This document shows positions 9,498 to 53,885 of a stretch of 64,000 bases of DNA, one piece after another. The first letter of the stretch is position 1; each line of letters starts with the position of its first letter. The notes beneath the pieces are model-generated. The model was not told the DNA's origin, made no database searches, and was given only the letters and a program-made list of their open reading frames with translations. The DNA is from an uncultured Planctomycetia bacterium. GTDB taxonomy: Bacteria > Omnitrophota > Gorgyraeia > Tantalellales > Tantalellaceae. The DNA lies in assembly GCA_964421015.1 (NCBI GenBank), contig CAYQUS010000001.1, positions 300,726 through 364,725 on the forward strand, written 5' to 3'. The position numbers were made by a program, and so were the translations under genes.

Positions 9498-9503
9498 CCC
9501 GCG

Positions 9504-10277: not shown

Positions 10278-10285
10278 CCGCCCCC

Positions 10286-13118: not shown

Positions 13119-13122
13119 ATTC

Positions 13123-23848: not shown

Positions 23849-25276
23849 ATGTTGTGTTATAGTTTTGCTATTGTGAACCTATTCCGGTCAAAAAACAACC
23901 TGAATTTGCCTAGTAGCGCTCTCTTTCTGTCTGGCTTTCTGCTTTTATGGATAGCTTTGCCGCTTTTCTCCTGGTTACGGCCTCTTTTCGGGGACTATAA
24001 CTATCCACCACTCAACCCAGGCTTCCGGTACATTATCCTGGCTTATATATCCTTGCTATACATCCTGTACCTGTGCGCGTCGGAAAGTTTCAAAGAAAAA
24101 TTTAGCGTTCCCAGACCCTTTATATTTTGTATCCTGCTCGTTCTTACGTACTGTTCTTTCGCCCCACCGGTATTCTCGATAGACCTTTACGAATATGTAA
24201 TAAGAGGACGTATGTCCGCTATCTACGGGCTTAACCCCTTTGTACATACGCCGCAAAGCGCCTCGCAGGACCCCCTATACAACGTGATATTCTGGAAATC
24301 CACAGTCACTACCTACGGACCGCTTTGGAACATCATAGCCGACCTTCTTGTCAGGCTTTCGGGGACGGGTGTAAAGGCAAATATCGTCTCCTTCAAGTCA
24401 TTGCTCTTTCTCTTTCACCTCGCGTCCGGCTATTTCGTTTACCTCCTCGCGGACAGTGAAAACAAGCGCGGAAGCTTCCGCATAACTTTTCTTTTTCTGC
24501 TTAACCCCTACATAGTGGTGATGAATCTCATGGAAAACCACAACGATATCGTCATGGTGGCTTTCTTTATTCTTTCTCTATACCTGCTCAAGAAGGAAAA
24601 ATACCTTCTATCTACAATGCTGCTGACTCTTTCCGCGGGAACTAAATACCTTACCGCGATTTTCTTTCCCCTCTTCATCATATATGCCGTAAAAAAAACC
24701 GATCCTGTCGGCAAAAAAGTTTCTTTTCTCGTCAAGGCAGCGGCCGCAAACTCTGTCCTTGCCGCCCTGATGTGGTCTCCTTTCGGGATGGGACCTTCTT
24801 CTGTCATGAATGCCATACAGGACATTAAAACCCGCCTTGACACTAACAGTATCCCCTACCTTACATACAGCATTTTTACCCGTCTCTTTTCAGAGCTTTC
24901 CGTAACAGACTTCAGAAAAATATCCGACATCGTCTTTTTAGTTCTGATTTTTTCCTCATACGCAATGTTTATATTTTCCAGGAATAATTCCATAAAAACT
25001 CTCGTAAATATGTGCGTAGTAATACTTATCGGGTATTTTTCTCTGGTATCTTTTCAGTTCGGAAGCTGGTACATCCTCTGGCTATCGCCTCTCATTATTT
25101 TTTCAGGCCTGCCGAAAAAGAACATGTTTTTCGTGCTTCTCACTTTCGCCGCGCTTATCTCGTTCTGGAAACGAATATCGTTTCTCCTTATAGCTGTGTC
25201 CCTGATCTACGCCATAAGTTTTCTTTTGGACACCCGTAAACACTTAAAAGAAAAGTCCGGGTTTTTATCCCGATAA
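23849..25276 (+). CDS. Polytopic integral membrane protein. Possible GT-C-type polyprenyl-phosphate-sugar-dependent glycosyltransferase or polymerase. The only convincing plus-strand gene.
   Basis: 475 aa with about 12 hydrophobic helices. It is convergent with the DPM1-like GT2 at 25283-25975. No catalytic motif was recognised by eye. Confidence 0.45.
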   Translation: MLCYSFAIVNLFRSKNNLNLPSSALFLSGFLLLWIALPLFSWLRPLFGDYNYPPLNPGFRYIILAYISLLYILYLCASESFKEKFSVPRPFIFCILLVLTYCSFAPPVFSIDLYEYVIRGRMSAIYGLNPFVHTPQSASQDPLYNVIFWKSTVTTYGPLWNIIADLLVRLSGTGVKANIVSFKSLLFLFHLASGYFVYLLADSENKRGSFRITFLFLLNPYIVVMNLMENHNDIVMVAFFILSLYLLKKEKYLLSTMLLTLSAGTKYLTAIFFPLFIIYAVKKTDPVGKKVSFLVKAAAANSVLAALMWSPFGMGPSSVMNAIQDIKTRLDTNSIPYLTYSIFTRLFSELSVTDFRKISDIVFLVLIFSSYAMFIFSRNNSIKTLVNMCVVILIGYFSLVSFQFGSWYILWLSPLIIFSGLPKKNMFFVLLTFAALISFWKRISFLLIAVSLIYAISFLLDTRKHLKEKSGFLSR

Positions 25277-25282
25277 TCCCGT

Positions 25283-25975
25283 TCATTTAAATTTTCCCAG
25301 TTTTATCATGAGAAGAGTATTAACGGCTTCAAGACCGTCTTTCCACCCTATTTTCTTGCCTTCATCGTAACTTCTCCCCCTGTAGGACACAGGAACTTCA
25401 ACTATCTTCGCCTTTCTCATCAAAAGCTTGGCCGTCACCTCAGGTTCGAATTCGAAACGGCTGGCTTTTATATCCAGCGATCTCATAACTTCGGTACGAA
25501 CCATTTTATAGCAGGTTTCCATGTCCGTAAGGCTGCCCCCGAAAAGCACGTTCGTGAGTGAAGTAAGAAATCGGTTTATCATATAGTGAGGAAAAGAAGT
25601 GCTCTTCCAGGTCTTAAGGAACCTGGAGCCGTATACGGCCTCCGGAGCGGATTCTCCGGCCACGGCAGCCATACCCACCATATCGCTCGGGGAATATTCA
25701 AGGTCAGCGTCCTGCACAATAACATAGTCGCCCTTTGCGTTTGAAAGAGCTGTTCGTATCGCGGATCCTTTCCCCTGGTTCCTGTCGTGATAAAAAACCT
25801 TTACTTCACCCTTTCCCGTGCCAAAGGTACGCTCCAGAAGCTCTCTTGTTCCGTCGCTGGAACAGTCGTCCACAAGAATTATCTCTTTATCGAGATCGAC
25901 GTTCCTTACAAGCTCAAGAAGGTCGAGAATGGTCTTGTTTTCGTTGTAAACCGGTATGAGTATACTGAGCTTCAT
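25283..25975 (-). CDS. GT2 polyprenyl-phosphate glycosyltransferase (DPM1/ArnC/GtrB/CsbB-like).
   Basis: 230 aa. MKLSILIPVYNENKTI...EIILVDDCSSDGT...YVIVQDADLEYSP is the GT2 layout. The short soluble form is typical of polyprenyl-P-sugar synthases. Confidence 0.7.
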   Translation of the reverse strand: MKLSILIPVYNENKTILDLLELVRNVDLDKEIILVDDCSSDGTRELLERTFGTGKGEVKVFYHDRNQGKGSAIRTALSNAKGDYVIVQDADLEYSPSDMVGMAAVAGESAPEAVYGSRFLKTWKSTSFPHYMINRFLTSLTNVLFGGSLTDMETCYKMVRTEVMRSLDIKASRFEFEPEVTAKLLMRKAKIVEVPVSYRGRSYDEGKKIGWKDGLEAVNTLLMIKLGKFK

Positions 25976-26781
25976 TTATCTCCTCCATAATTTTTTCTGC
26001 ATATAAAAACAACCCCCGGCGCGGAAAGCCACGGCATAAGTTTTTTGCACCATTTTGTCGCCGCGACACATAGTCTGCTGGGGCCGTCATAAGTGCTTTT
26101 GTCCCTAAAAATCCCTGAAAAGACCATAAGAGCATGTTCCTGATCCACAGGAATTATTTTTTCCACGGAGAAACCGGATCTCTCAAGGACGGATCTAAGC
26201 TCCCCGACAGAGAACCTCTGCTCCCAATAATGTTCTTCGGGAGGAGTTTTTCCTAAAATCTTTCGGACAAACCTGTTATTTTTTATCACAGTAACAGGCA
26301 AGGACACCATTTCAAATATCGTGGTCCTGGGAACCTTGACTATAAAAACCCCTCCGGGTTCGAGTACCCTGAACGCTTCCAGAACAGCCTTCTGGGGACC
26401 TTCCGTAAAATGCTCTATGACACCCAGGGAAAGATATCCTCCGAAATGACCGTCAGGAAAAGGCAGTTTTTCCACATTTCCGCATCTAAGGTCTATTCCA
26501 GGTTCGAACTCTCTGGCTTTTCTTAGAGGCTCCTCATTATAATCAACACCTATTACGTCATACCCCATGCGCCTCAGGTATATCACATACGGCGCAAGAC
26601 CGCATCCGCCCTCCAGTATTCTTTTTCCACGTGGCAGGAATGATAGGAATATCCCGATATTTTCTTTTACCCTGGGGTATTCGAAGATCTCCATTATCCG
26701 CGCAAGGCCCACCCCCTGCCAGTTCTCTTCCCATGCTTTTTTTGTGCTCAGATCTATGCGCTCGTCTTTTTGGGATCTCAT
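25972..26781 (-). CDS. Class I SAM-dependent methyltransferase.
   Basis: 269 aa. KRILEGGCGLAPYVIYLRRMGYDVIGVDYN...LEPGGVFIVKVP. Confidence 0.6.
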   Translation of the reverse strand: MRSQKDERIDLSTKKAWEENWQGVGLARIMEIFEYPRVKENIGIFLSFLPRGKRILEGGCGLAPYVIYLRRMGYDVIGVDYNEEPLRKAREFEPGIDLRCGNVEKLPFPDGHFGGYLSLGVIEHFTEGPQKAVLEAFRVLEPGGVFIVKVPRTTIFEMVSLPVTVIKNNRFVRKILGKTPPEEHYWEQRFSVGELRSVLERSGFSVEKIIPVDQEHALMVFSGIFRDKSTYDGPSRLCVAATKWCKKLMPWLSAPGVVFICRKNYGGDK

Positions 26782-26783
26782 TT

Positions 26784-27938
26784 CTACCTTTTGGTTTTGA
26801 TCTCCGCTCTTCCCGACCGTTTAGCGGAATTTTTTAATATCTCCGCTATTCTTTTCGAGGCTTTACCATCGCCGTAGGGATTCCTGGCTTTGGACATTTT
26901 CATGTAAAGTTCCTTATTCTCGATCAGTTTTATGACCCCCTTCACAATATCCTCTGTCCCTGTGCCCAAAAGCATCGCGCACCCTGCCCGAACCCCCTCC
27001 GGCCTTTCGGTCACCTGCCTCATTACAAGAACCGGTTTATTCAACGCCGGAGCTTCTTCCTGGATCCCCCCGGAATCAGTCAATATCAGGTAGGACATTT
27101 TCATGAGCCTGACGAACGGCTCATACTCCATCGGCTCTGTAAGATTGACCCGCGGTACTTTCCTTAATATGCGGGATACCTGCGAGCGCACATTGGGATT
27201 AAGATGGACCGGGTAGATTATCTCGACGTCGGGCCTCATCTCAGCGATCTTCTTTATAGCCTTAAACATGTTCTCCATGTCCCGCCCGAAACTCTCTCTT
27301 CTGTGAGCCGTAACCAGTATTATTTTTTTTCCGGCATCCGGATCGAGCGGAAATTTTCCGTCTATTTTCTGATTTTCGCCTTTAATTTTTCTGCCTGTTA
27401 TCCCCAACAAGGCGTCTACAACGGTGTTTCCGGTAATGAAAATGGAATTTTTATCTATGTTTTCCTTCCTGAGGTTTTCCGCGGCAGCGGGAGTGGGGGC
27501 GAAATGGAAATCCGCCAGGTGGCTTAAAAGCCTTCTCTGCACTTCTTCGGGATAAGGTTTGAACTTATCGTAGCTTCTTAGTCCGGCCTCCACATGGGCC
27601 ACTTTTATTTTTCGAAGGAACGCCGAAAGGGCCGCTGCGAAAGCCGTGGTCGTATCCCCCTGGACCACCACAATGTCCGGTTTGACCTTGTCAAAAACTT
27701 TCCCAAGCCCCTTGATAACCCCGCTTATGATCTCTTCGACCGACTGGTCATGTTTCATCACATCGAGATCATGATCGGGAATTATCCCGAAAAGTTCCAG
27801 AACCTGATCAAGCATACGGCGATGCTGTCCCGTGACGCAGACAAAACATTCTATCCCTCTGGTTTTTTCCAGCTCTCTTACCACAGGAGCGAGTTTTATA
27901 GCTTCGGGCCTTGTCCCGAAAACAGCAAGAACTCTCAT
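26784..27938 (-). CDS. wecB: UDP-N-acetylglucosamine 2-epimerase (non-hydrolysing, WecB/MnaA family).
   Basis: 384 aa. MRVLAVFGTRPEAIKLAPV...VVVQGDTTTAFAAALSAF...HVEAGLRSYD...VHLNPNV...LTDSGGIQEEAPALNKPVLVMR. All Epimerase_2 hallmarks are present. Confidence 0.9.
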   Translation of the reverse strand: MRVLAVFGTRPEAIKLAPVVRELEKTRGIECFVCVTGQHRRMLDQVLELFGIIPDHDLDVMKHDQSVEEIISGVIKGLGKVFDKVKPDIVVVQGDTTTAFAAALSAFLRKIKVAHVEAGLRSYDKFKPYPEEVQRRLLSHLADFHFAPTPAAAENLRKENIDKNSIFITGNTVVDALLGITGRKIKGENQKIDGKFPLDPDAGKKIILVTAHRRESFGRDMENMFKAIKKIAEMRPDVEIIYPVHLNPNVRSQVSRILRKVPRVNLTEPMEYEPFVRLMKMSYLILTDSGGIQEEAPALNKPVLVMRQVTERPEGVRAGCAMLLGTGTEDIVKGVIKLIENKELYMKMSKARNPYGDGKASKRIAEILKNSAKRSGRAEIKTKR

Positions 27939-27965
27939 GGTTTTCCCTCTTCTTCCTTCTTATTT

Positions 27966-29006
27966 TTACTTCCCGATAACCCTTCGATAAGCTTCGGCGG
28001 TCTTTTCAGCCACTTTTTCCCATGTGAAATTCTTAAGTATGTGTTCTTTAAGTTCCACGGTTCTATCCGAGGAATAAGCTTTGTCAACTGAGGCCCTTAT
28101 GGAAAAAATGTCTTCAGGTTTGGCGTAAAAGGCCATGTCACCGAAATACTCCCTGGTACTTCCTTCCTCCGTAATGACCACTTTGGAACCCGACAAACCC
28201 GCTTCCAAAGCGGCAAGACCTGGCGTCTCGAACCAGCTGGTAAGAGCGAATATGCCGGAGGCCGCGTACGCGGAAGAGAGTAATGTGGACTCATGCTCCA
28301 CCCGCCCTATGAAAAAGGTATTTTCAGAGGCCTCTTTTCTGCATTGTTCGTAATAGTCCGTATAATCCGAAACAGGCTCTCCGGCAAAAACAACCGTGCG
28401 TCCTGTCCCCTTCATGGCCCTTATGAAATTAAGCTGGTTTTTCCTGGGCTCTATACGTCCCGCATACAGGATAAAATCCTTTTTACCGTACCTTTCTATA
28501 AATTCAGCCGCATCGGCTTCCCTGAACCTGAGGTCAACCCCGTTGGGAACTACAGACATCTTCCTCCTGGAAATCCCGAAAAGCTTGGTTATCTGTTCGG
28601 CTTCCATAATGGAATTGGGAAGCATTATATCCGAAAGCTCCATGGTCTCTCTTCGCCCTGAAGGGAAATAAGGGAAAACCCGTTTTACGGCGTGCCGGAC
28701 CAAAAGTCCGGTTTTTTTGAGAATATCTCCCTCTTCCCTTAGAGCCCGTTTAAGACCGGACCAGAAGATCGGGGACAAAACCACTTTAACTCCCCTATTA
28801 CGCGCCGCGGCCATAAGACCCGTACAGTCTTTGACCGAACCGAAAACATGCAGTATATCAAAATCTTCCAGTTTGTCTTTCCACTGGTCAAAAAGCTTAA
28901 CTTCCACCCCCGCTTTTCTCAGATATTCCCCTGTCTTTATAAGCTGTACCTCACCGCCCCCCGGATTCTGGAACGCGGATGGGTAAGAATAAAAAGCCGC
29001 TCTCAT
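27966..29006 (-). CDS. GT4-family glycosyltransferase.
   Basis: 346 aa. C-terminus ETPGLAALEAGLSGSKVVITEEGSTREYFGD is a GT4 EX7E-like motif. Confidence 0.75.
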   Translation of the reverse strand: MRAAFYSYPSAFQNPGGGEVQLIKTGEYLRKAGVEVKLFDQWKDKLEDFDILHVFGSVKDCTGLMAAARNRGVKVVLSPIFWSGLKRALREEGDILKKTGLLVRHAVKRVFPYFPSGRRETMELSDIMLPNSIMEAEQITKLFGISRRKMSVVPNGVDLRFREADAAEFIERYGKKDFILYAGRIEPRKNQLNFIRAMKGTGRTVVFAGEPVSDYTDYYEQCRKEASENTFFIGRVEHESTLLSSAYAASGIFALTSWFETPGLAALEAGLSGSKVVITEEGSTREYFGDMAFYAKPEDIFSIRASVDKAYSSDRTVELKEHILKNFTWEKVAEKTAEAYRRVIGK

Positions 29007-29752
29007 CCGATCCCTCCTTCACGCAACAACCCGAAATATTTCCTGTATTTTAAATAGTCGTAATACGCGCAAAGCGAATAAAAATCAAAACCTTCCTTAC
29101 CGTCCAAAAAACCCATCTGGATAAAATACCTCTTTAAAAAAGTCCATGCGGGTTTAAGAAAAAGCCGGTACGGTTTAACGACCTGTCCTCTATCACGCAT
29201 ATTGAAAGCTTCCAGATCGGTATAAAGATCCAGCTTCTTAATATACTCTTCTTTTGATGCCGTCGAGTAATGGAGTATCGGGTTAGTTAAACATCCGGCA
29301 CAACCCTTTATTTCTACTTTTTCATGAACGAGGCCCGTAAAAGCTCCTTTTTCTTTCCTGAATATCCTCAAGTGCCTGTCGTTCTGATGCCCCCCATAAC
29401 GCATTTCTCTGCCGAAAATAATGTTGCTCCTGGGGATAAAATATCCGTCATACTTATCTGAGGACAAGGCTCTTTTTATCTCTGCCGCGAGAGCTTCAGT
29501 GACAATTTCATCGGCATCCAGTGAAAATATCCATTCCCCAACGGCCTGTTTAACGGCAAAATTCTTCTGTGACGAAAAATCGTCGAATTCCCGGGAAAAA
29601 GTCTTTGCTCCTCCGGATCTTGCGACTTCGATTGTTCTGTCCGAAGACCCTGAATCCACGACAATAACCTCATCCGCCCAAGCCACCGATCTCAGACACT
29701 CCTGAAGTTTCTTTTCCTCATTAAGAGCTATTATTACGGCACTTATACCCAT
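29003..29752 (-). CDS. GT2-family glycosyltransferase (WaaE/KdtX-like LPS-core type).
   Basis: 249 aa. ISAVIIALNEEKKLQECLRSV...EVIVVDSGSSDRT...FSLDADE. Confidence 0.75.
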   Translation of the reverse strand: MGISAVIIALNEEKKLQECLRSVAWADEVIVVDSGSSDRTIEVARSGGAKTFSREFDDFSSQKNFAVKQAVGEWIFSLDADEIVTEALAAEIKRALSSDKYDGYFIPRSNIIFGREMRYGGHQNDRHLRIFRKEKGAFTGLVHEKVEIKGCAGCLTNPILHYSTASKEEYIKKLDLYTDLEAFNMRDRGQVVKPYRLFLKPAWTFLKRYFIQMGFLDGKEGFDFYSLCAYYDYLKYRKYFGLLREGGIG

Positions 29753-29770
29753 ACTCTTTCTTCCTCTGTG

Positions 29771-30721
29771 TCACTTGAAAATTCCAAAAACATCCCTGTC
29801 CGTTGGCCCTGCCTCACCATAGGCCCGGGCACATCTCTTTCTGACGGCCTCCGGGAATCTTTTTAAAGCCTGAAAAAATCCCTTTACAGCGGCAATATCC
29901 CCCCGCCAGACCCACCAAAGCAGTCGGATAGGTATAAAAATAAGGTGCGTTATCCAGTATCCTGGATAGGAAATATTTTTCCAGAAAAAAAAGGCGCTGT
30001 TGCGGCTGTCTATCGCGGAGACACCCTTTTTGCCGAACTTCTTCCCGAAACTCGCCCCTCCCATGTGGTATACGACGGATCCGGGCTCATAACGGCACTT
30101 CCACCCTCTTTTCCATGCGCGGAAACATATATCGGAATCCTCCAGCCTTCCGGGAAGATAAAGATCGTCATATCCTCCCAGCTCAAGGAACATATCTCTC
30201 CTTACTGCCCCGAACCCTGTCTGAAAGGTATTCCCGCTCGTGTCAACTTCCTTTTCCCACCCATCATACCTGGCCTTAGCGCCGAACCAGCCGTATTTTA
30301 TAAAACCCTTGGACCTGCCCCCCTCAAGCTCTTCACCGGTAAAATTGAAACATTTCGGAGCTACCATAAAAATATCACTGCTATTTTCAAGGGTCTTTAC
30401 CATAGGATCAAGAAAATCCTCTTTAACCTTCATATCGTTATTGAGAAGCACCGCTATCTCTTCGCTCTGGTCACGCACGACCTTGTTATACGAACAGAAT
30501 ACCCTGTTATCCATGGGCACGACCGTTATGTCTCCGGAAAAAGCTTCAAGCGCCGTAAGGCTGGCATCTGTACTCTGATTATCTATTACGGTGATCCTGG
30601 CCTCCCGGGAGGACATGTTTTTTGCCTTAATGATCGAAGGCATGCACTCGGGGATGAATTTTTCACCGTTGTAGTTAAGCACTATAATATTAACTTTCAT
30701 GTCCTCTCCGAATGATCTCAC
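29771..30721 (-). CDS. GT2-family glycosyltransferase.
   Basis: 316 aa. VNIIVLNYNGEKFIPECMPSI...ITVIDNQSTD...LLNNDM. Confidence 0.7.
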   Translation of the reverse strand: MRSFGEDMKVNIIVLNYNGEKFIPECMPSIIKAKNMSSREARITVIDNQSTDASLTALEAFSGDITVVPMDNRVFCSYNKVVRDQSEEIAVLLNNDMKVKEDFLDPMVKTLENSSDIFMVAPKCFNFTGEELEGGRSKGFIKYGWFGAKARYDGWEKEVDTSGNTFQTGFGAVRRDMFLELGGYDDLYLPGRLEDSDICFRAWKRGWKCRYEPGSVVYHMGGASFGKKFGKKGVSAIDSRNSAFFFWKNISYPGYWITHLIFIPIRLLWWVWRGDIAAVKGFFQALKRFPEAVRKRCARAYGEAGPTDRDVFGIFK

Positions 30722-32601
30722 TTTATCCTGTAAATAGAATACTCCACTCCCCTGGCGTTCCCGGAAACAGGCTTGTTGCGATAAACAAGTTCAAGAAAAT
30801 CCTCCCGAAAACCGCTGTCCCTGATCAAACCTGTAAGCCTTCTTCTGTCCTGAAACTCAGGGGTCTTATTTTCGTAATCCGCGTAAAGAATATGAGAAAA
30901 CCCCTCTGACTTAAGCTTGTTTATTACCTCGGCCCCGCCGCCGAGATATTTATCGTACCTATCGAATATCCACCAGTAGATTTCACGCCTGTAGGGTTTA
31001 TCTATGAAAAAAGTGTTGCTTTCGTTAACTACCATTATTTTCACGTTTTCATCAGTGATACCGTTTATATACATCGAAACATCAAAAGACCTTTCATTAT
31101 CCGACAGGTAATCCTCTTCGCTTGTTATACCAAAAACCACTTTGCCTCTGTCTATATTTCTGTAAATGTTTAAGGACAGGTGAATAACTAAAAACGCCGA
31201 TACGGTGAACATCAGCAGTCTTTTCAGGGTTCTACTGTTCCACTCTGAGGCAAGCACCCACGCTGATAGCACACTAAGAAAAGGTATGGCCGGAAGAAAA
31301 AACCTCATATGCTGATATTGGAAGAACCAGAAAAGCGTGTACAGAAGTGAAAAGCCCATTACGTATTTCAGTATACGCGTGAGTTTCCCCGTTAAAAGAA
31401 GACCCGGGATAAGCGCCAGAAAAAGCGCCCCGAGCCTTTCCCCTCCGAACTCTTCCGGGCGCATGGCTGTTCTCCACGGCAGACTTAAAAAACTTCCCAA
31501 CCCCGTAGACATTCCGTGCGAAACTCTTATCGACCTTTCCGATACAAGCTTCAACACCTCATTATCCAACCCACCTCCCCCGAAAATATCCGAAAAAAAC
31601 GGGAATAATGGAGTGCCTCTTACCACATACTGCCTCAGATACCAAACAGACGAAAATAGAGCCGCAGCCAGCATAAAAGATAGAATCGCTTTGCCTTCCA
31701 TCTTAAGCTCCGTAGGCTTTTTGAAAAAAGCTGCCGCGAAAAAACATACAAGAAGTATGATCGGCACCACCGCGAAAAAATATTTTACCGAAAGCCCGAA
31801 CCCGCACATAACCCCTGAAAACAACGCCCATCTAAAATCTTTATTCTCCTGATACAGAACAAAGGCATAAAAAGCCAGAAAGGCGTATAAAACGGAGCCA
31901 AGATCCACATAGGTATGCGTAGCCTCGGAAAATACCGCGGGGGTCAGAAAAAAAATCGTGGAGGCAAACACTCCGGTTTTTACCGAAAAGAACCTTTTTG
32001 AGAAGGCGTAAACCGCCGCGGCCGAAAAAACAGCCAGAGAAAAATGGAAAAGACCGGTTAAAGGGAAAAGCCCTAAAACGAGAGCCATGGTGTAATACAT
32101 CTCAACAAGGTACGGCCACAAACAGTTAGTACTGTTAAAAGGTATAAGTCCGACCGTCCCAGCCCCGGCGAAATATTTGGCGTCAGTGAGATGGTAAACC
32201 ATCGAATCGTTGCTAAAAGACGGCGCCATGGCTCCAACCATGGTTACCGCCATGCCCGTTAATAGCAGGCACAAAAAGAACCCGGTAAAAGCTTCTCTCC
32301 CCGCTTTTGACATTACGGAAAATGCCACGGGAATATCCCTGAGGCACATTCTTATTTCCGGCAATACCAGAATAGCGATGGCCATGATAACCCCAGCGGT
32401 AACTAGAGGATAGAGTATTCTAAGGATACCTAAAAAGAGGATAACGCAGGATAGCGTTCCAAAACCCATGGCGAAGGAAAAGACCATATTTTCGGAGACA
32501 GAAATGGTCTTTAGACCCGCTGCGCCAAGCAGCTTTCTCCCGAGAGCCCATAGAACCAGCACTAAAACAAAAAAAACAGATATGCTTATAAAATAATCCA
32601 T
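30718..32601 (-). CDS. Large polytopic membrane protein with a ~200-aa C-terminal extracytoplasmic domain. Possible GT-C glycosyltransferase or polymerase.
   Basis: 627 aa. The N-terminal ~420 aa is very hydrophobic (more than 12 helices). The C-terminal portion is soluble. The stop overlaps the upstream start by 4 nt. Confidence 0.4.
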   Translation of the reverse strand: MDYFISISVFFVLVLVLWALGRKLLGAAGLKTISVSENMVFSFAMGFGTLSCVILFLGILRILYPLVTAGVIMAIAILVLPEIRMCLRDIPVAFSVMSKAGREAFTGFFLCLLLTGMAVTMVGAMAPSFSNDSMVYHLTDAKYFAGAGTVGLIPFNSTNCLWPYLVEMYYTMALVLGLFPLTGLFHFSLAVFSAAAVYAFSKRFFSVKTGVFASTIFFLTPAVFSEATHTYVDLGSVLYAFLAFYAFVLYQENKDFRWALFSGVMCGFGLSVKYFFAVVPIILLVCFFAAAFFKKPTELKMEGKAILSFMLAAALFSSVWYLRQYVVRGTPLFPFFSDIFGGGGLDNEVLKLVSERSIRVSHGMSTGLGSFLSLPWRTAMRPEEFGGERLGALFLALIPGLLLTGKLTRILKYVMGFSLLYTLFWFFQYQHMRFFLPAIPFLSVLSAWVLASEWNSRTLKRLLMFTVSAFLVIHLSLNIYRNIDRGKVVFGITSEEDYLSDNERSFDVSMYINGITDENVKIMVVNESNTFFIDKPYRREIYWWIFDRYDKYLGGGAEVINKLKSEGFSHILYADYENKTPEFQDRRRLTGLIRDSGFREDFLELVYRNKPVSGNARGVEYSIYRIK

Positions 32602-32602
32602 C

Positions 32603-34204
32603 TCAGAGCTTTTCCTTAAGGTCGTATATCACATAGCCCAAAGACCGCCTCTCAAGTTTTTTCCTGTACCCGTCCGCTCTCGAACCGGACAGCGCCAGAA
32701 TTTCCCACAAGAACCTGTCAAAAGTACCTTTTTCAGGTTCCTCGTAAACCCTTTCCCCGGCTTCAACAAGCCTGTAATTATTTTCCAGATATTCTTTGAA
32801 AGCCTGGTCTGAATCAAACTCATCAAGGTTTCCACATACAAAATAGTCTGCCCCTTCCTCTCTTCTTTTCTCGAGAAGATCTATATTGCCTTTCATAGCC
32901 GGCAGATATTGCGACCACCCCTTTCTCCCGCAGTAGTAAAGAAGCATCGCGTCAGGCCCGAAAGATGTGAGAATAAGATCTTTTTCCCCAGTAATATGGT
33001 TTACCCTGGCGCCAAGCTCCTCCTGGAACTCGAATACCGGTTTGTATTTTATTTTTGGGAACACAATAACGAATATACTTACGGTTACAAGAGCCCAGAA
33101 AAACAACTTAACTGTCTTTTTAAGAAAACCACCCCTAATTCGGCCGAAGACCGAATAATACCCCAAAGCCGCCAGTATCGCTCCGGGAGGGAGAAAATGT
33201 ATCTTGTAATAGTCCTGCACGGAAGCCATCGGGACAAGGAAGATAAAAGCCGCTGCCGCAAAGATCCATGAGAACAGTACCCATTTCAGCGTTTCCTCTT
33301 TTTTAGAAAAACATCCAAGAATAGCCAGGATAAAGATACCCGGGGAGAATATTACCCAGGAAACCTGCTTAAGGATAACCCTCCAGAATTCAATTGAAAA
33401 AGAATTTTCTATTATCTGCGATATGAGGAATTTCGGTCCGAAAATGGCCTCCCCCTCCACCAGAGTATACTCTGTGGGAAAGGCGGCACGCACCGAACCG
33501 GAATGTATCACCCACCACCAAGCGTTAACAGCAAGCACAAACGTGAGCGGTATTAAAAACAATGGGATAAGCCTAGTTTTTCTGAAGATCAGAAATAACG
33601 CCGCGATAAAAACAAGTATGTACAGATTGGTAAGTTTTAGAAGTATGAAAAGCGTGAGCGCCAAAGATGCCGTAACAAGATCTACCACCCTCTCATCCCT
33701 CAACCACTTTATGGCATGGTAAATCAAAACGAACATGGCAAGAAGCATAAAACTTTCCGCCTGAAATACTCTGCTCATAAGTATGGAAATGGGAGCTATA
33801 CAGTAAAACACCAAGGCTGTCAAAGCAGTCCTGTCGCCCGATATCAGAAAACATAGCCTGAAAAAATAAAAAGCCGACAGGCCGAATAGAATTATCACCG
33901 GTAACCTGAACACCCAGTTGTGGTCACCAGCCGCCCTTATGATAAAAGAAACGGAGTAAGGTAAAACAGGAAGCTCGAACATGAAATATCCGGGAGAAGC
34001 TCCGTCATTATCGACCCTGGGCAATAAAAAACTCGAAGCAGGGTCCTGGGCATAGTTTCGTGCTATGGCCGTTCCCATAGCCTGACGGAGAGGATTAAAG
34101 TCAAATAAGGCGCCGTTTATGTTGTAGAACCTGATGCCGATAGCCGCTAATATTATCGCAGCGGCTATAATATTCCTTCGGCTTACTGAAAAAACACCGG
34201 TCAT
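32603..34204 (-). CDS. Polytopic membrane protein, PMT_2/ArnT-like GT-C glycosyltransferase candidate.
   Basis: About 533 aa from the ATG at 34204. This start forms an ATGA overlap with the stop of the upstream gene, verified in sequence. The protein begins MTGVFSVSRRNIIAAAIIL. There are more than 10 TM helices and a soluble C-terminal domain. Confidence 0.45.
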   Translation of the reverse strand: MTGVFSVSRRNIIAAAIILAAIGIRFYNINGALFDFNPLRQAMGTAIARNYAQDPASSFLLPRVDNDGASPGYFMFELPVLPYSVSFIIRAAGDHNWVFRLPVIILFGLSAFYFFRLCFLISGDRTALTALVFYCIAPISILMSRVFQAESFMLLAMFVLIYHAIKWLRDERVVDLVTASLALTLFILLKLTNLYILVFIAALFLIFRKTRLIPLFLIPLTFVLAVNAWWWVIHSGSVRAAFPTEYTLVEGEAIFGPKFLISQIIENSFSIEFWRVILKQVSWVIFSPGIFILAILGCFSKKEETLKWVLFSWIFAAAAFIFLVPMASVQDYYKIHFLPPGAILAALGYYSVFGRIRGGFLKKTVKLFFWALVTVSIFVIVFPKIKYKPVFEFQEELGARVNHITGEKDLILTSFGPDAMLLYYCGRKGWSQYLPAMKGNIDLLEKRREEGADYFVCGNLDEFDSDQAFKEYLENNYRLVEAGERVYEEPEKGTFDRFLWEILALSGSRADGYRKKLERRSLGYVIYDLKEKL

Positions 34205-35775
34205 TTTTCTCCCCCGGACCTTCCCGCGCACATATACTGTGCCCCGGCCGGCAGCCACCCCAGGGAAGGCTCCATGCGCCGTAACATCCTTAAAAACCCC
34301 GGGAAAAATACAATGTACCTTTTTCTGTAAGTTTCAAGGCCCGCCCCATGAATAAGTTTTTCTGCGTCATTGAGTGTTAAAAGCGAGGTGTTTTTGTCAA
34401 GAACCGAAAATTTTACGGTCAATCGCGTAAGTGGGTTATACGGGTTATGCTCAAAAATTATGACCACTCCTTCTTTCGCCAGAAAATCCGATATTTTTTT
34501 AAGGAAAGAACCCCTGTCTTCGGGACTCACATGATGCAGTACGTTAGCCATGATAACGGCTTGAAATTTATTGCCTGCCATATCGTTTATATCGTCCAGG
34601 AACCTTACCCCTCTTACATTATTTGCCGCTTCTTTTACGGACGCGCTTGAGATGTCGTACCCGGTTATTCCAACCTTGTTCTTTTCAAAATGTTCACGTA
34701 AAAATCGGCTCACAAGCCCTACCCCGCATCCGTAATCCAATATGTTACCTCTAAAATTTTCCCCAAGAAGCTCTTTAACACATTCCGCCTTGTAATTCGC
34801 GAAATACTCCGGTCCCTCTCCCGAGAATCTCACGTCGCGGTTGAGTATACTGCTGTAATCCCGTCCGAATTTGTCGAACTCGGCCCCGCTTTGTTGCGCA
34901 GAGAAATATTCTTCTATGCTCTTAGGGGCGTAGCCAAGATCGGAGGCGGCTTCGGAAATGTCGTAAGATTTCTCCGAAAACAGCCTGGGTATCTGATCCA
35001 TAGCGAACCCTCTTCCTCTTGTCGCTAAAACCACCGCCCTGGCACCTATGGCTAAAAGCGGCATCGGGATGTGTACTTTTACTTTTGAAATTTTTTTAAA
35101 ACCAAGCAATTTTTCTACAAAGACGTTGTACTCCAGGCTTTCTGGACCGGCTATCGTGTAGATCTTGCATCGCAGGTATTCCTTTTCGATGCAGGTTAAA
35201 AGCACCGAAATAAGATCCGACACATGTACGGGGGAAACAGTGTACTTTCCATTTCCGGGAACAGGAATGAACGGCAGAGAATCTACCTTGTCGATAAGCA
35301 TGTTTATACCGCTTTTGTCCGATATACCGTAAACCTCCGAAGGCCGTAAAATGACCCAGTCCATTATCGACTTTTTAACATGCTCTTCTCCCCGGAGTTT
35401 TGAAACGCTGTATTCCCCGCCCAAAACCGAAATAGCCTGTGTGCTGACATATATGAACCTTTTAACGCCGTTTTCCTCGCACGCTTTTACAAGCAGTCTT
35501 GTCCCTTCGGTGTTGACCCTGAAATAAAGACCGGCATCGTTGGTATGGGTAACGGCCGCCATGTGTACGACCGTATCTACACCCTTAAGAAAAGAACCGT
35601 AAGAATCCGGATCCAGGATATTTCCGGTAACTCTTTCTACTTCCGGATAAAGAAGCTCCGGGTCTCCCGGAAGACAAAGCGATCGTATCCTGTATCTTGA
35701 TCTTATAAGCTCTTTCAGGAGAAAATTACCAATTTTCCCGGACGCTCCGGTTATAAAAACCCTTTTTCCTGTCAT
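34201..35775 (-). CDS. Fusion protein. N-terminal NAD-dependent epimerase/dehydratase (extended SDR) and C-terminal class I SAM methyltransferase.
   Basis: The start at 35775 forms an ATGA overlap with the upstream stop, verified. N-terminus: KRVFITGASGKIGNFLLKEL plus VVHMAAVTH. C-terminal ~200 aa: ILDYGCGVGLVSRFL...AVIMANVLHHVSPEDR...GVVIIFEHNPYNP. Confidence 0.7.
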   Translation of the reverse strand: MTGKRVFITGASGKIGNFLLKELIRSRYRIRSLCLPGDPELLYPEVERVTGNILDPDSYGSFLKGVDTVVHMAAVTHTNDAGLYFRVNTEGTRLLVKACEENGVKRFIYVSTQAISVLGGEYSVSKLRGEEHVKKSIMDWVILRPSEVYGISDKSGINMLIDKVDSLPFIPVPGNGKYTVSPVHVSDLISVLLTCIEKEYLRCKIYTIAGPESLEYNVFVEKLLGFKKISKVKVHIPMPLLAIGARAVVLATRGRGFAMDQIPRLFSEKSYDISEAASDLGYAPKSIEEYFSAQQSGAEFDKFGRDYSSILNRDVRFSGEGPEYFANYKAECVKELLGENFRGNILDYGCGVGLVSRFLREHFEKNKVGITGYDISSASVKEAANNVRGVRFLDDINDMAGNKFQAVIMANVLHHVSPEDRGSFLKKISDFLAKEGVVIIFEHNPYNPLTRLTVKFSVLDKNTSLLTLNDAEKLIHGAGLETYRKRYIVFFPGFLRMLRRMEPSLGWLPAGAQYMCAGRSGGEK

Positions 35776-36485
35776 TTCGCTGAGAACTCCCTGATCCTGG
35801 CTTTGAGCATATTTCTGAGGAACTCGAGTATAGTGCCGTACTTGACAAATGAATTTCTGTAATTGCATTTATAGAATTTGGAAGGTATGGAAGCTACCGA
35901 AAGCTTAAGCCTCCTGGCCTGTATCATTATCTCCGCGTCAAGGAACCAGTCGTCGGAAGAAAGGTCCATTTTTTCGTAAGCTTCCCGTCTTATCACTTTA
36001 GGTTTAGAGTTCACATCTACGGCATTTATACCGGGGAACATGATAAAAAATAATATGTTGTAAACTACCGAAATTATCCTTCTGACAATGCCGTCGTGCC
36101 GCACCACCCTGTAGGTTTTAACAAGGTCGAGGTTATCCTTCTTGATCTTGCGATAAACCCTCACTATGTCCCTGTAAGGCATCTGTTCATCCCCGTCAAT
36201 AAGGCATACATAATTCCCTTCCGCCATTTTAAGTCCGCTTCTGGCGTCCCACCCCATCATCCCTTCCTTGGGCATGGCCACGTACTTTATATTTTCATGC
36301 CGCGAAGCTATGTCTTTCACGATAAAGGGAGTTTCGTCCCCCTTGCCTTCGAAATAATTCCCCACAAGAACTATCTCCCAGGACGGCAGAAACCTGTCCA
36401 CAAGCTTAACGACCTTTTCGACAAAATCATACGCCCTGCCGCCGGCCGCGTAACAAAGTATTACTACCGACAACTCTGCCCGCAT
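35772..36485 (-). CDS. GT2 glycosyltransferase (DPM1-like polyprenyl-phosphate-sugar synthase type).
   Basis: 237 aa. LSVVILCYAAGGRAYDFVEKVV...EIVLVGNYFEGKGDETPF...YVCLIDGDEQMP. Confidence 0.65.
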   Translation of the reverse strand: MRAELSVVILCYAAGGRAYDFVEKVVKLVDRFLPSWEIVLVGNYFEGKGDETPFIVKDIASRHENIKYVAMPKEGMMGWDARSGLKMAEGNYVCLIDGDEQMPYRDIVRVYRKIKKDNLDLVKTYRVVRHDGIVRRIISVVYNILFFIMFPGINAVDVNSKPKVIRREAYEKMDLSSDDWFLDAEIMIQARRLKLSVASIPSKFYKCNYRNSFVKYGTILEFLRNMLKARIREFSAK

Positions 36486-36511
36486 AAGATATCTCCCGTT
36501 TTTTAAAGACC

Positions 36512-37096: not shown

Positions 37097-37116
37097 GTCG
37101 TCTCCTAGTATGCATT

Positions 37117-38127
37117 TTAGATTTTTACGGGAACTCCGTTATTACTCAACGATTCCTGCGCCTTTTCCAGTATCTTTACTACCTCAAGCCCGTTACGCCC
37201 GTCTGTAAGAGGTTTCTTCTTATTTTTAATGCACTCAAGAAAATGCAGACATTCCAGCCTGAGGGGCTCAGACATATCCACCCTCGGAAGATATATGTCC
37301 CCTGTTCTCAGCGTAAGATAATCCCCATAGGAATCAAAACCGGATTTTTCTCCCTTGTCGAAACCTTTATTGTATATCTTAATTTTCTCGACGCTCTGCA
37401 CATCGTCAAACACAAGCATTTTTTTACTGCCCACTATGGTCAGTTTTCGCTCTTTATGGGGATCGAGCCAGGATATCTGCACCTGGGCCATTTTCTTGTC
37501 CTTAAAGTACATGGAAAGGAAAACTACATCCTCGAGGCCCTTCTGCAGGTAACACTGGCCTCTTGCTGACACATTCTCGACTTCCGAACCAAAAAGATAA
37601 AGCAGCATCGATATGTCATGGGGCGCGAAGCTCCAAAGAGAATTCTCATCTTTCCTTATCGTTCCCAGATTGACCCGCAGAGAATAGGCGTAATAAACGT
37701 CGCCGAGGTCCCCTGAATCTATGTACCCTTTAATCTGCCGAAGCGCTGGGTGATAAAGCATAAGATGCCCGACCATAAGGGGTATGTTCTTCCGTTCCGA
37801 TATAGCGACAATCTCCTTGCAATGCTCTTCCTTGAGAGCCATTGGTTTTTCCACATATGTAGCCTTGCCTGCCTCGAGAGCGGCCTTGGCAAGACGGTAA
37901 TGGTCCACGGCAGGAGCGGCTATTACCACGCCATCAATTTTTGGATCCGACAATATGAGATCAAAATCATCGGTAGCCACCGGGAGGTTGAACGCCTTTT
38001 TAGCGGACTCTAATTTCTTTTTATCCACGTCACAACAGGCATACAGAACCCCGAGATCATAATAGTTCCTGACCAGATGTTTCCCCCAGCTTCCGGTTCC
38101 GACAACAGCTATCTTAAGATCTTTCAT
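37117..38127 (-). CDS. Gfo/Idh/MocA-family NAD(P)-dependent oxidoreductase. Sugar-nucleotide 3-dehydrogenase candidate (WbpB/GnnA-like).
   Basis: 336 aa. [18 protein letters not shown] Rossmann motif, EKPMA motif. Context: next to the LbH acetyltransferase. Confidence 0.75.
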
Positions 38128-39415
38128 TTATTCCCCCGTTAGTTACTTTTTTAAAACATTCAGACCCGCCGGACAACCCGGCAGCTACAATAACACAAAG
38201 GGCTAAGAAAATCATCCTCGACACGAGCATAACACCGCCCCATCTTACCGAAAATCCGTGCATTATATCCGGCAATCCCGGAAGATTTCCGAAAAAAGAA
38301 GGATCAACAGGCATAAGAAGCCCTGTGGTCGTTCCGGGAGAATTCAGATTATAAATAAAAAGAGTGGAAACCTGCGCCCAGTATATTCTTTCAGATAAAT
38401 CCTTCCTGCACACGGCCAGGATAAGCAGCGGCGTAACCCAAATAAAATAGTGCACGGGCACATAGAAAACAGTGTAAACCAGCATCAGCGAAGAGATCCC
38501 TGTTAAAACAATGTCCTGTTCTCTTCCCCGTTTCTTCAAGACCAGACAATTCGCGATAAAAACCGGGTACAAAACAAGAAATATAATTTTTTCAAAGGCA
38601 AAACCGGAATCCAACCTTATCCCGGAATAGAATTTTGGGAAAATTGAACCAATAACATCTTCTCCCGATAACACATAAAAAGGTAAAAGCACGAAGACAA
38701 CTGGCATGAGAACGGCCGCAATGCTCTTAAGCAAACTTTTTTTTGAATCTGTTGCGACTATAAGCAATGGCAATATCATGAAGATCGTGAACGTTTTAAA
38801 AAGCGCTGCGAGACTCAGAATAAAAAAGGCCTGCCATATCCGTTTTTTTTCCATGACCAGGAGAGAAAAAACCGTGAGGGACGCCGGAATGATATCGAAC
38901 TGCCCGAACATATACGCGCCATAAAGCACAACGGGGCTTAAACACCAGAGCTTCAAAGCTTTTTGGGACGTTTCCCAGGATTTTAAAAAATTCATGATGC
39001 AGAACAAGCAAAGTCCGTCAAAAATGAGGTACGGGCTCTTCATTATGATAAGATATCTGAATACCGAGAGAGAAGTCCCATTGGTCAACAGCCATTCCCT
39101 CAAACCTGAGCTAAAAACATCCTGTATCCAGGGATAAAACCCCGGGTTAACCGGTTTAAAGATCATCTGGCAAACCCCGAAAAAAACATAGGTGAGCGGA
39201 GGATAATAGTTCCATGATCTTCCGGGCGGAAAATTTTCCGCTATATACCCGTATACATCCAGGATACCAGAATAAGCCAGTTTGCTTGGGAAAAAGTTTA
39301 TGAATATTATGTCGTTATGCGCTGCCGCGAACATCATCACAGCTCTCAGCGCAAGACCGGCTGTTATCCAAACGGTAAAATTTCGCCAGTTTTTTTTTAT
39401 CTCTTGGGCAGCCAT
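38114..39415 (-). CDS. Polytopic integral membrane protein. Possible GT-C glycosyltransferase or Wzy-like polymerase.
   Basis: 433 aa with about 11 TM helices. It is immediately downstream of a DPM1-like GT2. Confidence 0.4.
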   Translation of the reverse strand: MAAQEIKKNWRNFTVWITAGLALRAVMMFAAAHNDIIFINFFPSKLAYSGILDVYGYIAENFPPGRSWNYYPPLTYVFFGVCQMIFKPVNPGFYPWIQDVFSSGLREWLLTNGTSLSVFRYLIIMKSPYLIFDGLCLFCIMNFLKSWETSQKALKLWCLSPVVLYGAYMFGQFDIIPASLTVFSLLVMEKKRIWQAFFILSLAALFKTFTIFMILPLLIVATDSKKSLLKSIAAVLMPVVFVLLPFYVLSGEDVIGSIFPKFYSGIRLDSGFAFEKIIFLVLYPVFIANCLVLKKRGREQDIVLTGISSLMLVYTVFYVPVHYFIWVTPLLILAVCRKDLSERIYWAQVSTLFIYNLNSPGTTTGLLMPVDPSFFGNLPGLPDIMHGFSVRWGGVMLVSRMIFLALCVIVAAGLSGGSECFKKVTNGGINERS

Positions 39416-40146
39416 AAGACAAAAACCTCTCTAAAGATCAGTTTCATATACGACAGGGTGGTTTTAAAGATCTTCATCTTGCTCTTCCCTTTCCTCCTGT
39501 CACATTTCAAAACCATTGAAACTTCTTCCATCCTCGCTCCCAGCCTTTTGAGCTTGAGAAATATCTCTACCGCGCAGACAAAACCCTTCTCTGTTATAAA
39601 CCCATCTCCGTATATCTCATATGCCCTATTCAGGACATCATAGCTATAGCACCTGTAGAAAGAACTGAACGTTCTTATGCCCGTGCTGCCGGACACCAGG
39701 CTTATCAGAAAATTGGCTCCCTGGCTCAGCATTTTTCTAAAAAATGTTGTCCCCTGAACTCCCCCATTTTTAGCGTAACATGACGCGAGCGCTACGTCGC
39801 ATCCGGATCTCACCTTTTCCAGCATATCTTCCAGAACCCCAAGGTCGCTGGTATTATCGGCTTCCATCGTCACGATCACATCGCCTTTTCCTGAAGATCT
39901 GAGCGCTGCCCTGAAACCCAGATCAAAAGCCGACCCTGGGCCCATGTTAACGGGATTCTTTACGACCTCCAGGGGGAAATCCTTTCTCATCGACTCAGCT
40001 ATAGACACCGTTGAATCCGAAGAACCGTCATCGGATAGTACAACTCTATAGTCCCACCTTTTGGATAGGGCCGCCCGCGACAGATTATGAAGCAATGCTC
40101 CTATGTTTTTTTCCTCGTTGTATACAGGAAAAACAAATACTATCAT
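39397..40146 (-). CDS. GT2 polyprenyl-phosphate glycosyltransferase (DPM1-like).
   Basis: MIVFVFPVYNEEKNIGALL...VVLSDDGSSDST...VTMEADNTSD. The ATG at 40146 gives an ATGA overlap with the upstream stop. An alternative in-frame ATG at 40167 would add MAKGRDQ. Confidence 0.65.
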   Translation of the reverse strand: MIVFVFPVYNEEKNIGALLHNLSRAALSKRWDYRVVLSDDGSSDSTVSIAESMRKDFPLEVVKNPVNMGPGSAFDLGFRAALRSSGKGDVIVTMEADNTSDLGVLEDMLEKVRSGCDVALASCYAKNGGVQGTTFFRKMLSQGANFLISLVSGSTGIRTFSSFYRCYSYDVLNRAYEIYGDGFITEKGFVCAVEIFLKLKRLGARMEEVSMVLKCDRRKGKSKMKIFKTTLSYMKLIFREVFVLWLPKR

Positions 40147-51032: not shown

Positions 51033-51119
51033 AAATCCTCCATCACCCGGGCACACCCCGCTTCCCGCGGGCTATGCCCGGGATTTCAACGCTCCCTTTA
51101 TGTCACTCTTTCAGGACAG

Positions 51120-52322: not shown

Positions 52323-52335
52323 TTTGATACCTCCG

Positions 52336-53878: not shown

Positions 53879-53885
53879 TTTGGTG

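Follow-up and report, generated by a model that had tools for sequence, protein, structure and literature searches.

In mycobacteria, stand-alone family 2 glycosyltransferases (GT2s) without transmembrane (TM) helices, Ppm1 and PpgS, make polyprenyl-phosphate sugars for membrane-embedded GT-C glycosyltransferases (PimE, MptA/B, Rv3779), and PpgS makes polyprenyl-P-GalNAc for Rv3779 (PMC3485146). The CsbB/GtcA/YfhO and GtrA/GtrB/GtrX systems also consist of a cytoplasmic GT2, a flipping step and an extracytoplasmic GT-C (PMC7389260). In ArnC/ArnT, a GT2 that makes a polyprenyl-phosphate (Pol-P) sugar is paired with a GT-C that decorates lipopolysaccharide (LPS) in the periplasm. Bordetella LgmA/B/C, Francisella FlmF/FlmK and Rhizobium RgtE/RgtA-D follow the same GT2 plus GT-C logic on lipid A or the LPS core. 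Here we analysed a 64-kb window of Omnitrophota DNA (the whole stretch of 64,000 nucleotides, positions 300,726 to 364,725 of contig CAYQUS010000001.1, assembly GCA_964421015.1). From its sequence, we consider it likely that the window belongs to a conserved surface-glycan locus of Omnitrophota, probably one for LPS, in which three split modules for extracytoplasmic glycosylation are encoded.

Nearly all open reading frames (ORFs) of at least 180 aa in the window were scanned with Pfam and NCBIfam profiles, and TM helices were counted by crude Kyte-Doolittle hydropathy. An earlier sequence-only reading had proposed that three short soluble GT2s of the DPM1 type each sit beside a large polytopic membrane protein, and that three more GT-C-like proteins are encoded in the window. 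Its ORFs are all real, at or near the coordinates it gave, and its starts at 34204 and 40146 are better than the alternatives at 34258 and 40167, judging from ATGA overlaps, a ribosome-binding site and agreement in length with orthologues. The genes of the three modules and their closest neighbours are as follows.

22711 to 23802, minus strand: GT9, heptosyltransferase III/RfaQ-like (PF01075 80 bits, TIGR02201 125 bits)
23849 to 25276, plus strand: MptA/GT87-like GT-C of 475 aa, module 1 (TIGR03459 MptA 48.7 bits; GT87 18.9 bits, sub-threshold)
25283 to 25975, minus strand: GT2-1, TM-less DPMS/ArnC-like predicted polyprenyl-phosphate glycosyltransferase of 230 aa, module 1 (PF00535 116.6 bits)
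26784 to 27938, minus strand: WecB, non-hydrolysing UDP-GlcNAc 2-epimerase, two genes upstream of GT2-1 (TIGR00236 500.8 bits, cut-off 210 bits)
30718 to 32601, minus strand: PMT_2-family GT-C of 627 aa with about 9 TM helices, module 2 (PMT_2 34.9 bits)
32603 to 34204, minus strand: PMT_2-family GT-C of 533 aa with about 9 TM helices, module 2 (PMT_2 33.6 bits, cut-off 26.1 bits)
34201 to 35775, minus strand: fusion of a short-chain dehydrogenase/reductase (SDR; NAD epimerase/reductase) with a class I methyltransferase, 524 aa, module 2 (Pfam Epimerase and Methyltransf)
35772 to 36485, minus strand: GT2-2, divergent TM-less predicted Pol-P glycosyltransferase-like GT2 of 237 aa, module 2 (PF00535 46.4 bits)
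38114 to 39415, minus strand: GT87-like GT-C of 433 aa with about 8 TM helices and an HND motif after TM1, module 3 (GT87 29 bits, cut-off 25 bits)
39397 to 40146, minus strand: GT2-3, TM-less DPMS-like GT2 of 249 aa (256 aa from 40167) that has an EAD motif and, at the Arg117 position, Cys, module 3 (PF00535 79.1 bits)
40143 to 41138, minus strand: SDR like UDP-xylose synthase (UXS) and the C-terminal domain of ArnA, directly upstream of GT2-3, module 3 (PRK11908 143 bits, ArnA C-domain 140 bits)

The available comparisons support the view that all three short GT2s resemble Pol-P glycosyltransferases (PfDPMS, the dolichyl-phosphate mannose synthase of P. furiosus; ArnC; GtrB) and not ordinary GT2s, GT2-1 and GT2-3 by sequence and GT2-2 by its model. 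PfDPMS is the best structural or sequence relative of each. In all three, the likeness runs through the entire catalytic domain and takes in the acceptor loop (A-loop) and the interface helices. Residue roles were taken from PfDPMS (PMC5526996) and were mapped onto GT2-1 and GT2-3 by MAFFT and HMMER alignments, not structures. The DxD motif is kept (as EAD in GT2-3) and so is the A-loop, with its Arg in all three proteins and its Lys in GT2-1 and GT2-3. In the alignments, the set of Pol-P phosphate ligands (R117, R131 and S135 of PfDPMS) is complete in GT2-2, while R131 and S135 are present in GT2-3 and the R117 equivalent is present in GT2-1.

GT2-1 is identical to a protein of a Candidatus Omnitrophota metagenome-assembled genome (contigs of GCA_035399965.1). 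Its top match in the PDB is PfDPMS (5mlz, E 7e-17, residues 1-209), followed by ArnC and then GtrB, and a profile built from 17 orthologues left this ranking unchanged. E12, D89-A-D91, R118 and the A-loop residues R201, E205, G206 and K207 are invariant in these 17 orthologues; R118 corresponds to PfDPMS Arg117, and the A-loop residues to Arg202, Glu206, Gly207 and Lys208. PfDPMS is also the top PDB match of GT2-3 (E 3.6e-20, residues 9-246), with ArnC and GtrB next. GT2-3 keeps R131 and S135 (in RKMLSQG) and the A-loop (RRKGKSK). Its EADN and ASCY signatures are conserved in its orthologues, and the metal-binding second Asp is retained. Both GT2-1 and GT2-3 match the PpgS model over its full length (48 and 37 bits), far below its curated cut-off.

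For GT2-2 the PDB match by sequence was weak. An AF2 model built with 38 homologues (pLDDT 90.8) matched PfDPMS in Foldseek with a TM-score of 0.81 (rmsd 3.1), ArnC with 0.75 and GtrB with 0.74; other GT2s reached 0.66 at most. In the 38 homologues D97-G-D99, R126, R135, S139 and R210 are invariant and Q101 is nearly so. D97 and D99 correspond to PfDPMS D89 and D91, Q101 to Q93, R126 to R117, R135 to R131, S139 to S135 and R210 to R202, and thus all three phosphate ligand positions are present. The single hydrophobic stretch of GT2-2 (residues 132-150) is an interface helix in the model.

By hydropathy, none of the three short GT2s has a TM helix, and the second interface helix is where each protein ends. 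They differ in this from PfDPMS with its TM domain, from ArnC with its two C-terminal TM helices, and from CsbB and GtrB; the C-terminal TM anchor of type I and III DPMS, GtrB and ArnC is not found in them. Such an anchor is not universal, as human DPM1, Ms-Ppm1 and PpgS have no TM helices. PfDPMS without residues 230-352 still goes to the membrane and is active (PMC5526996), and M. smegmatis Ppm1 alone suffices for synthase activity without a membrane partner (PMC3485146). Therefore, the missing TM domain does not disqualify the window proteins, whose length of 230-250 aa matches that of the active TM-less truncation and of human DPM1. A hydrophobic-moment scan aimed at amphipathic interface helices could not tell these apart from ordinary helices on the protein surface and was not used as evidence.

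A fourth short GT2 (29003-29752, 249 aa), which lies beside the PMT_2 genes, served as a control. Its best matches were GmaR (5e-19) and SunS, and it is not of the Pol-P type. Since this control finds GmaR and SunS instead, the similarity test discriminates between kinds of GT2. The likeness to GmaR, a flagellin glycosyltransferase of Listeria, and to SunS, a peptide S-glycosyltransferase, hints that one enzyme of the locus glycosylates proteins.

The presumed partners of the short GT2s are polytopic, and together with the three other membrane proteins named in the sequence-only reading they form a set of seven, all with 6-10 TM helices by hydropathy. The three additional genes, and a Wzx-like gene that is separate from the seven, are as follows.

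18319 to 19809, minus strand: PMT_2/PMT-family GT-C of 496 aa with 8 TM helices and WQDEAE after TM1 (PMT_2 45.5 bits, PMT 26.9 bits)
59967 to 61655, minus strand: PMT_2/PMT-family GT-C of 562 aa with 9 TM helices and CDET after TM1 (PMT_2 51.8 bits, PMT 42.2 bits)
61659 to 63848, minus strand: divergent YfhO-family GT-C of 729 aa that ends in a beta-rich extracytoplasmic domain (assigned through PF09586 of its homologues)
43511 to 44974: Wzx-like flippase, encoded separately from the GT-C proteins

On their family assignments, the seven membrane proteins are GT-C-like glycosyltransferases: four are PMT_2, two GT87/MptA-like and one divergent YfhO. PMT_2 matches were above the Pfam cut-off for 18319, 30718, 32603 and 59967, and the GT87 match was above it for 38114. 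Proteins identical to the 23849-25276 product carry the precomputed domain PF26314 (MptA_B). The 61659-63848 protein had no Pfam match of its own, and many homologues with 40-52% identity carry PF09586 (YfhO). Its AF2 model (32 homologues, pLDDT 87.7) has about 13 long helices followed by the beta-rich domain. The top 20 Foldseek matches of this model in the PDB were all GT-C proteins (STT3, ArnT, EmbA/B, AftA, PglB) with probability 1.0, at low TM-scores of 0.26-0.42; it was the only GT-C of the window compared in this way. Acidic candidate motifs follow TM1 in all seven (WQDEAE, SIDLYEY, NDS, FDF, HNDI, CDET, GDYSDQ), and conservation was seen in the two that were compared with homologues, 61659 and 38114, with D33 in GDYSDQFYPW of 61659-63848 conserved in at least 90% of sequences. 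In the 23849-25276 protein, SIDLYEY lies in the loop after the first TM helices. A phmmer search of five of the candidates (23849, 38114, 59967, 18319 and 61659) against the PDB gave no meaningful match, since these proteins are too divergent for a single-sequence search. The possibility that the membrane proteins are transporters or Wzy/WaaL proteins was rejected on the Pfam and fold results. With seven GT-C genes among about 58 window genes, compared with 5.9% large polytopic proteins among 561 background genes in comparable loci, the GT-C density of the window is more than chance.

The claim that every short GT2 lies beside a large membrane protein held for modules 1 and 3; in module 2 the SDR-methyltransferase gene intervenes. 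In module 1 the MptA-like gene (plus strand) is convergent, tail to tail, with the GT2-1 gene (minus strand). In module 2 the order is GT2-2, the SDR-methyltransferase fusion and the two PMT_2 genes, so that GT2-2 is one gene away from its partners. In module 3 the GT87-like gene overlaps the end of the GT2-3 gene by 19 nt. Two further Omnitrophota contigs show the complete arrangement in synteny (loci L087 and L090, 68-72% identity; L089, 64%). The order is SDR, GT2-3, GT87-like gene, GFO oxidoreductase, hexapeptide acyltransferase, GT2-2, SDR(-methyltransferase), PMT_2 and PMT_2, followed by GT2, GT2, GT4, WecB, methyltransferase, the MptA-like gene (on the opposite strand), GT2-1 and GT9. 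The pairing of the MptA-like gene with GT2-1 recurs in L090, and the SDR upstream of GT2-3 is kept in L087 and L089. Orthologues of the 32603-34204 protein are equally placed in L087, L089 and a further locus, L094, and those of the 30718-32601 protein in L087 and L089 match both PMT_2 and PMT.

The linkage of GT2-2 to GT-C genes extends beyond close relatives. In six out of six contexts of the GT2-2 family, a GT-C-like gene with 9-12 TM helices is located one to three genes downstream. L094 retains just GT2-2, the SDR/methyltransferase fusion and PMT_2, and its flanks are otherwise different. In distant relatives, the downstream proteins with 9-12 TM helices are PTPS_related, DUF7024 and, with DUF2142 nearby, an unnamed protein of 613 aa, and the gene or genes between them and the GT2 encode an SDR, a methyltransferase or a B12-radical-SAM protein.

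The identity of GT2-1 to its homologues is 60-79% within Omnitrophota and 45-52% in numerous further phyla, and the family is widespread (more than 600 genome matches at 45-64% identity in many phyla). We sampled 80 loci and counted as large polytopic those proteins that had six or more TM helices and a length of 380 aa or more, against the per-gene background of 5.9%. Such a protein was directly adjacent to the GT2-1 homologue in 19 of the 80 loci and at most two genes away in 29. The 39 polytopic neighbours included PMT_2 (14), PMT (5, often the same protein), YfhO (2), DUF2079 (2) and DUF6044 (1), and only a few were transporters. GT-C genes beside members of this family thus recur across phyla.

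The strongest single item for the coupling of synthase and transferase is a set of natural fusions in the GT2-3 family. An exhaustive search gave 390 cluster representatives at E <=1e-30. One of them, P0315, is a GT2-3-like domain with the EADN and ASCY signatures fused to a GT87 domain; the GT87 half has 33% identity to the 38114-39415 protein over 395 aa (E 6e-61) and keeps the H-x-D motif. GT2-3-family domains are also fused to PMT_2 (P0352, P0416), to a UXS-like SDR (P0339, P0399) and to WecB (P0437, P0444). These fusion partners mirror the gene order in the window, which is WecB (41116-42240), SDR (40143-41138), GT2-3 and the GT87-like gene.

From families and folds, conserved residues, synteny and fusions we infer enzymatic activity, sugars, flipping and acceptor as follows. 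A small peripheral-membrane GT2, built of a GT-A core with two interface helices and an acceptor loop but lacking a TM anchor, would take a nucleotide sugar from neighbouring enzymes and move one sugar to polyprenyl phosphate at the cytoplasmic face, giving a polyprenyl-P-monosaccharide. The lipid-linked sugar would then be flipped by a flippase encoded outside the window, and the polytopic GT-C at the outer face of the inner membrane would put the sugar on an already exported acceptor. The three further GT-Cs (18319-19809, 59967-61655 and 61659-63848) would probably use the same or other lipid-linked donors. The periplasmic-side glycosylation with lipid-linked monosaccharide donors that had been read from the sequence is thus supported by the GT2 and GT-C families, their residues, the synteny and the fusions. 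Neither observation that the sequence-only reading had named as refuting it was made: the membrane proteins did not prove to be transporters or Wzy/O-antigen ligase members, and the short GT2s do not lack the DxD-type motif and acceptor loop.

The neighbouring genes allow only a guess at the donor sugars: WecB may point to the donor of module 1, the GFO enzyme and the acyltransferase to that of module 2, and the UXS/ArnA-C-like SDR to that of module 3. WecB at 26784-27938 is a possible donor supply for GT2-1. It is found upstream of GT2-1 orthologues in L090 and in two more Omnitrophota loci, L007 and L091, and GT9 genes flank the orthologues in the same three. A linkage of WecB and GT9 to GT2-1 that crosses phyla was rejected, since it occurred in 1 of 80 diverse loci and holds inside Omnitrophota only. 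Upstream of module 2 are a GFO enzyme like UDP-GlcNAc 3-dehydrogenase and a NeuD/PglB-type acyltransferase. The 40143-41138 SDR is a probable supplier of the nucleotide sugar for GT2-3, although its assignment is ambiguous, with dTDP-glucose dehydratase at 133 bits near UXS and ArnA at 143 and 140 bits, the latter two below the cut-offs.

Several observations weigh against this interpretation. All NCBIfam matches of the short GT2s are far below the curated cut-offs. GT2-1 has Asn (the invariant Asn134) for PfDPMS Ser135 and Glu for Lys178, and the Arg131 position is not aligned; GT2-2 is without the Glu12 of PxYNE and the base-binding Asp of VDD (D39); GT2-3 has Glu for the first Asp of DxD and Cys for Arg117. 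Because each of the three carries substitutions at signature positions, donor and acceptor details would differ from those of DPMS. GDP-mannose is unlikely to be the donor for all three. The GT87 score of the 23849-25276 protein is under the 25-bit cut-off. Across phyla, the enrichment of large polytopic neighbours for GT2-1 is only about 2-fold, and 51 of the 80 loci are without a large membrane protein within two genes. Moreover, no GtrA/GtcA/ArnEF-like flippase ORF was found in the window (no ORF of up to 220 aa with at least three hydrophobic segments). A GtrA-like small flippase, which the sequence-only reading had suggested looking for, is thus absent from the 64 kb and may lie elsewhere in the genome.

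Some of these points would suit short GT2s that are ordinary cytoplasmic enzymes, extending an undecaprenyl-diphosphate oligosaccharide or glycosylating a protein, in which case the adjacency to membrane genes would reflect the density of a glycan locus. The window is full of other GT2, GT4 and GT9 genes, the short GT2s have no TM segments besides their sub-cut-off NCBIfam scores, most GT2-1 homologues in other phyla have no adjacent GT-C, and the neighbouring GT2 at 29003-29752 does resemble a protein glycosyltransferase. We consider this explanation improbable, since the likeness to DPMS, ArnC and GtrB goes beyond the nucleotide-binding half to the acceptor loop and interface helices, residues that bind the Pol-P phosphate are in part conserved, the GT-C genes lie in strict synteny, and GT2 plus GT-C fusions exist. 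Slightly less probable again is that the polyprenyl-P-sugar made by the GT2s primes a lipid-linked oligosaccharide, in the way of AglJ in the N-glycosylation of haloarchaea, with the GT-Cs acting as oligosaccharyltransferases or polymerases. AglJ is indeed the top NCBIfam match of GT2-1, but its 93.6 bits are far under the 325-bit cut-off. The model of the YfhO-like protein also matches STT3 and PglB, and the locus has other cytoplasmic glycosyltransferases and a Wzx-like flippase; however, PMT_2, GT87/MptA and YfhO are known as families of monosaccharide transferases, the Pfam scans of the window proteins gave no STT3/PglB/AglB family match, and three synthases one-to-one with GT-Cs better suit a single-sugar logic.

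The acceptor is a separate matter. Our best guess, which is tentative and falls a little short of an even chance, is the LPS core or O-chain, because module 1 has a GT9 gene beside it in the window as well as in three further Omnitrophota loci. In L090, Bac_transf, Wzy_C and another two GT9 genes follow. Somewhat less likely, though still a serious candidate, is that the same mechanism serves another acceptor, either a protein, secreted or at the surface (O-glycosylation of the PMT kind), or a sulfated polysaccharide of capsular or exopolysaccharide type. Four GT-Cs match PMT_2 or PMT, but PMT_2 also takes in ArnT-type lipid A/LPS transferases. The two sulfotransferases, CysNC/CysD, the HepA/MsbA-like ABC exporter and the nonulosonic-acid block of the locus would fit such an acceptor, and the GmaR/SunS-like GT2 hints at protein glycosylation. 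Against this, four Omnitrophota loci have GT9 at the flanks of the conserved core, Wzy_C and Bac_transf are present in addition in L090, and no protein acceptor is identifiable from sequence.

The modules can thus be compared with the described systems. Similar to the mycobacterial pairs, the partners at 23849 and 38114 are of the MptA/GT87 type. Unlike in mycobacteria, no Ppm2/Rv3632-like small membrane partner adjoins the window GT2s, and the host is a diderm Omnitrophota with an LPS-like GT9 context and not a mycobacterium with arabinogalactan and LAM. Similar to Arn, module 3 has an ArnA-C-domain/UXS-like SDR at its head, but the GT-C beside GT2-3 is GT87-like and not of the ArnT family. 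The full Arn set (ArnA(B)CD-T-EF) was not found, with no ArnB, ArnD, deformylase or ArnE/F in the window, and module 3 was rejected as an Arn operon for lack of these defining components. The 61659-63848 protein is a YfhO-family member as in CsbB/GtcA/YfhO, but its gene adjoins none of the three GT2s and the organism has no teichoic acids. Identity with a complete three-component Gtr/Gtc system was rejected because the GtrA component is absent from the window.

Related Omnitrophota loci (L089, L091, L094) add genes for an ArnD-like deacetylase and a formyltransferase. In L089 (297-3944) a GT2 is followed by Polysacc_deac_1 and GT87; L091 (1579-5761) has PMT_2, a 303-aa GT2 and a formyltransferase-deacetylase fusion; and similar Arn/Lgm-like additions occur in L094 (11538-12711). 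Their presence suggests that the donors are amino sugars from which acyl groups are removed at the lipid level. A DPMS-like GT2 from Patescibacteria (L014 1502-2620) has a fused C-terminal GtrA-like TM domain, and P0398 consists of an amine oxidase, a GT2 and, at its C-terminus, a small TM region with an EamA/ArnE-like look by eye. These two proteins may be synthase-flippase fusions.

The wider window is an Omnitrophota surface-glycan locus, nearly gap-free and with nearly all genes on the minus strand. By Pfam and NCBIfam its order begins with methyltransferases, a radical-SAM enzyme and a multidomain glycosyltransferase of 1342 aa; then come two sulfotransferases with CysN/CysC and CysD (PAPS supply), followed by a HepA/MsbA-like ABC exporter; GT2, GT4 and GT9 glycosyltransferases, two WecB epimerases and the Wzx-like flippase; and a complete nonulosonic-acid block of the pseudaminic/legionaminic type. 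The three modules and the other GT-Cs are interspersed among these genes. The 1342-aa protein (3868-7896) has methyltransferase, GT2, GT1-type and methyltransferase domains and is flanked by at least five more methyltransferases and a radical-SAM/SPASM enzyme (2334-11047). A partial ORF at the window edge (1-578, minus strand) resembles RgpF-type rhamnan synthesis by eye.

The two sulfotransferases (PF13469), the CysN/CysC fusion and CysD are located at 12159-14244 and 19793-22651, and these sulfotransferase and PAPS-supply genes suggest a sulfated surface glycan. The sulfation block is not in the syntenic L090, where GT4, GT4, Bac_transf, Wzy_C and GT9 take its place. The nonulosonic-acid block (46934-58295) encodes PseB, PseC, a methyltransferase, GNAT, a PseG-like protein, a formyltransferase, NeuB, an unknown 400-aa protein, a CMP-transferase, a GFO oxidoreductase and DegT. 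Upstream of it, the sole long intergenic gap (58296-58858) has as its only ORF a 78-aa one (58349-58585, minus strand) with an excisionase/MerR-like helix-turn-helix. The literature that we found on Omnitrophota LPS and glycosylation consists of general genome surveys only, which mention variable polysaccharide cassettes.

The conserved SDR-methyltransferase fusion between synthase and transferases in module 2 is the sole feature that might exceed the known systems. Its start is at 35775 and not at 35868, which gives MTGKRVFITGASG. The position between GT2-2 and PMT_2 is kept in L087 (fused, 8712-10274), in L094 (fused, 6712-8271) and in L089 (split genes, 8712-10271). The best NCBIfam matches of the fusion are HpnA, OleD and SdmB. 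Because these relatives are lipid-acting SDRs, editing at the lipid level is suggested, and the fusion might oxidise or reduce, or epimerise, and O-methylate the sugar while it is on polyprenyl phosphate, before transfer by the GT-C, although we rate this as rather unlikely. Recognised lipid-level sugar editing is a short list (DprE1/DprE2, ArnD and NaxD/LgmC), to which this reading of the fusion, if true, would add methylation.

The modules add new and divergent members to known enzyme classes, from a phylum that has been little studied, and their pathway logic is textbook. Their value is in annotation and context, with no new principle. The three broadly conserved, anchor-less GT2 families of about 230-250 aa, all currently annotated generically as "glycosyltransferase family 2", are likely to be polyprenyl-phosphate sugar synthases. 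The natural GT2 plus GT-C fusions are direct genomic evidence of synthase-transferase coupling, and the window provides concrete, testable enzyme pairs. Omnitrophota are mostly uncultivated, very small and apparently host-dependent, and their envelope chemistry is little charted. For this organism, the locus predicts that several sugars would be added on the periplasmic side, from at least three different lipid-linked monosaccharide donors, to a surface glycan that is probably LPS, and that sulfate, methyl and nonulosonic-acid decorations would be added as well.

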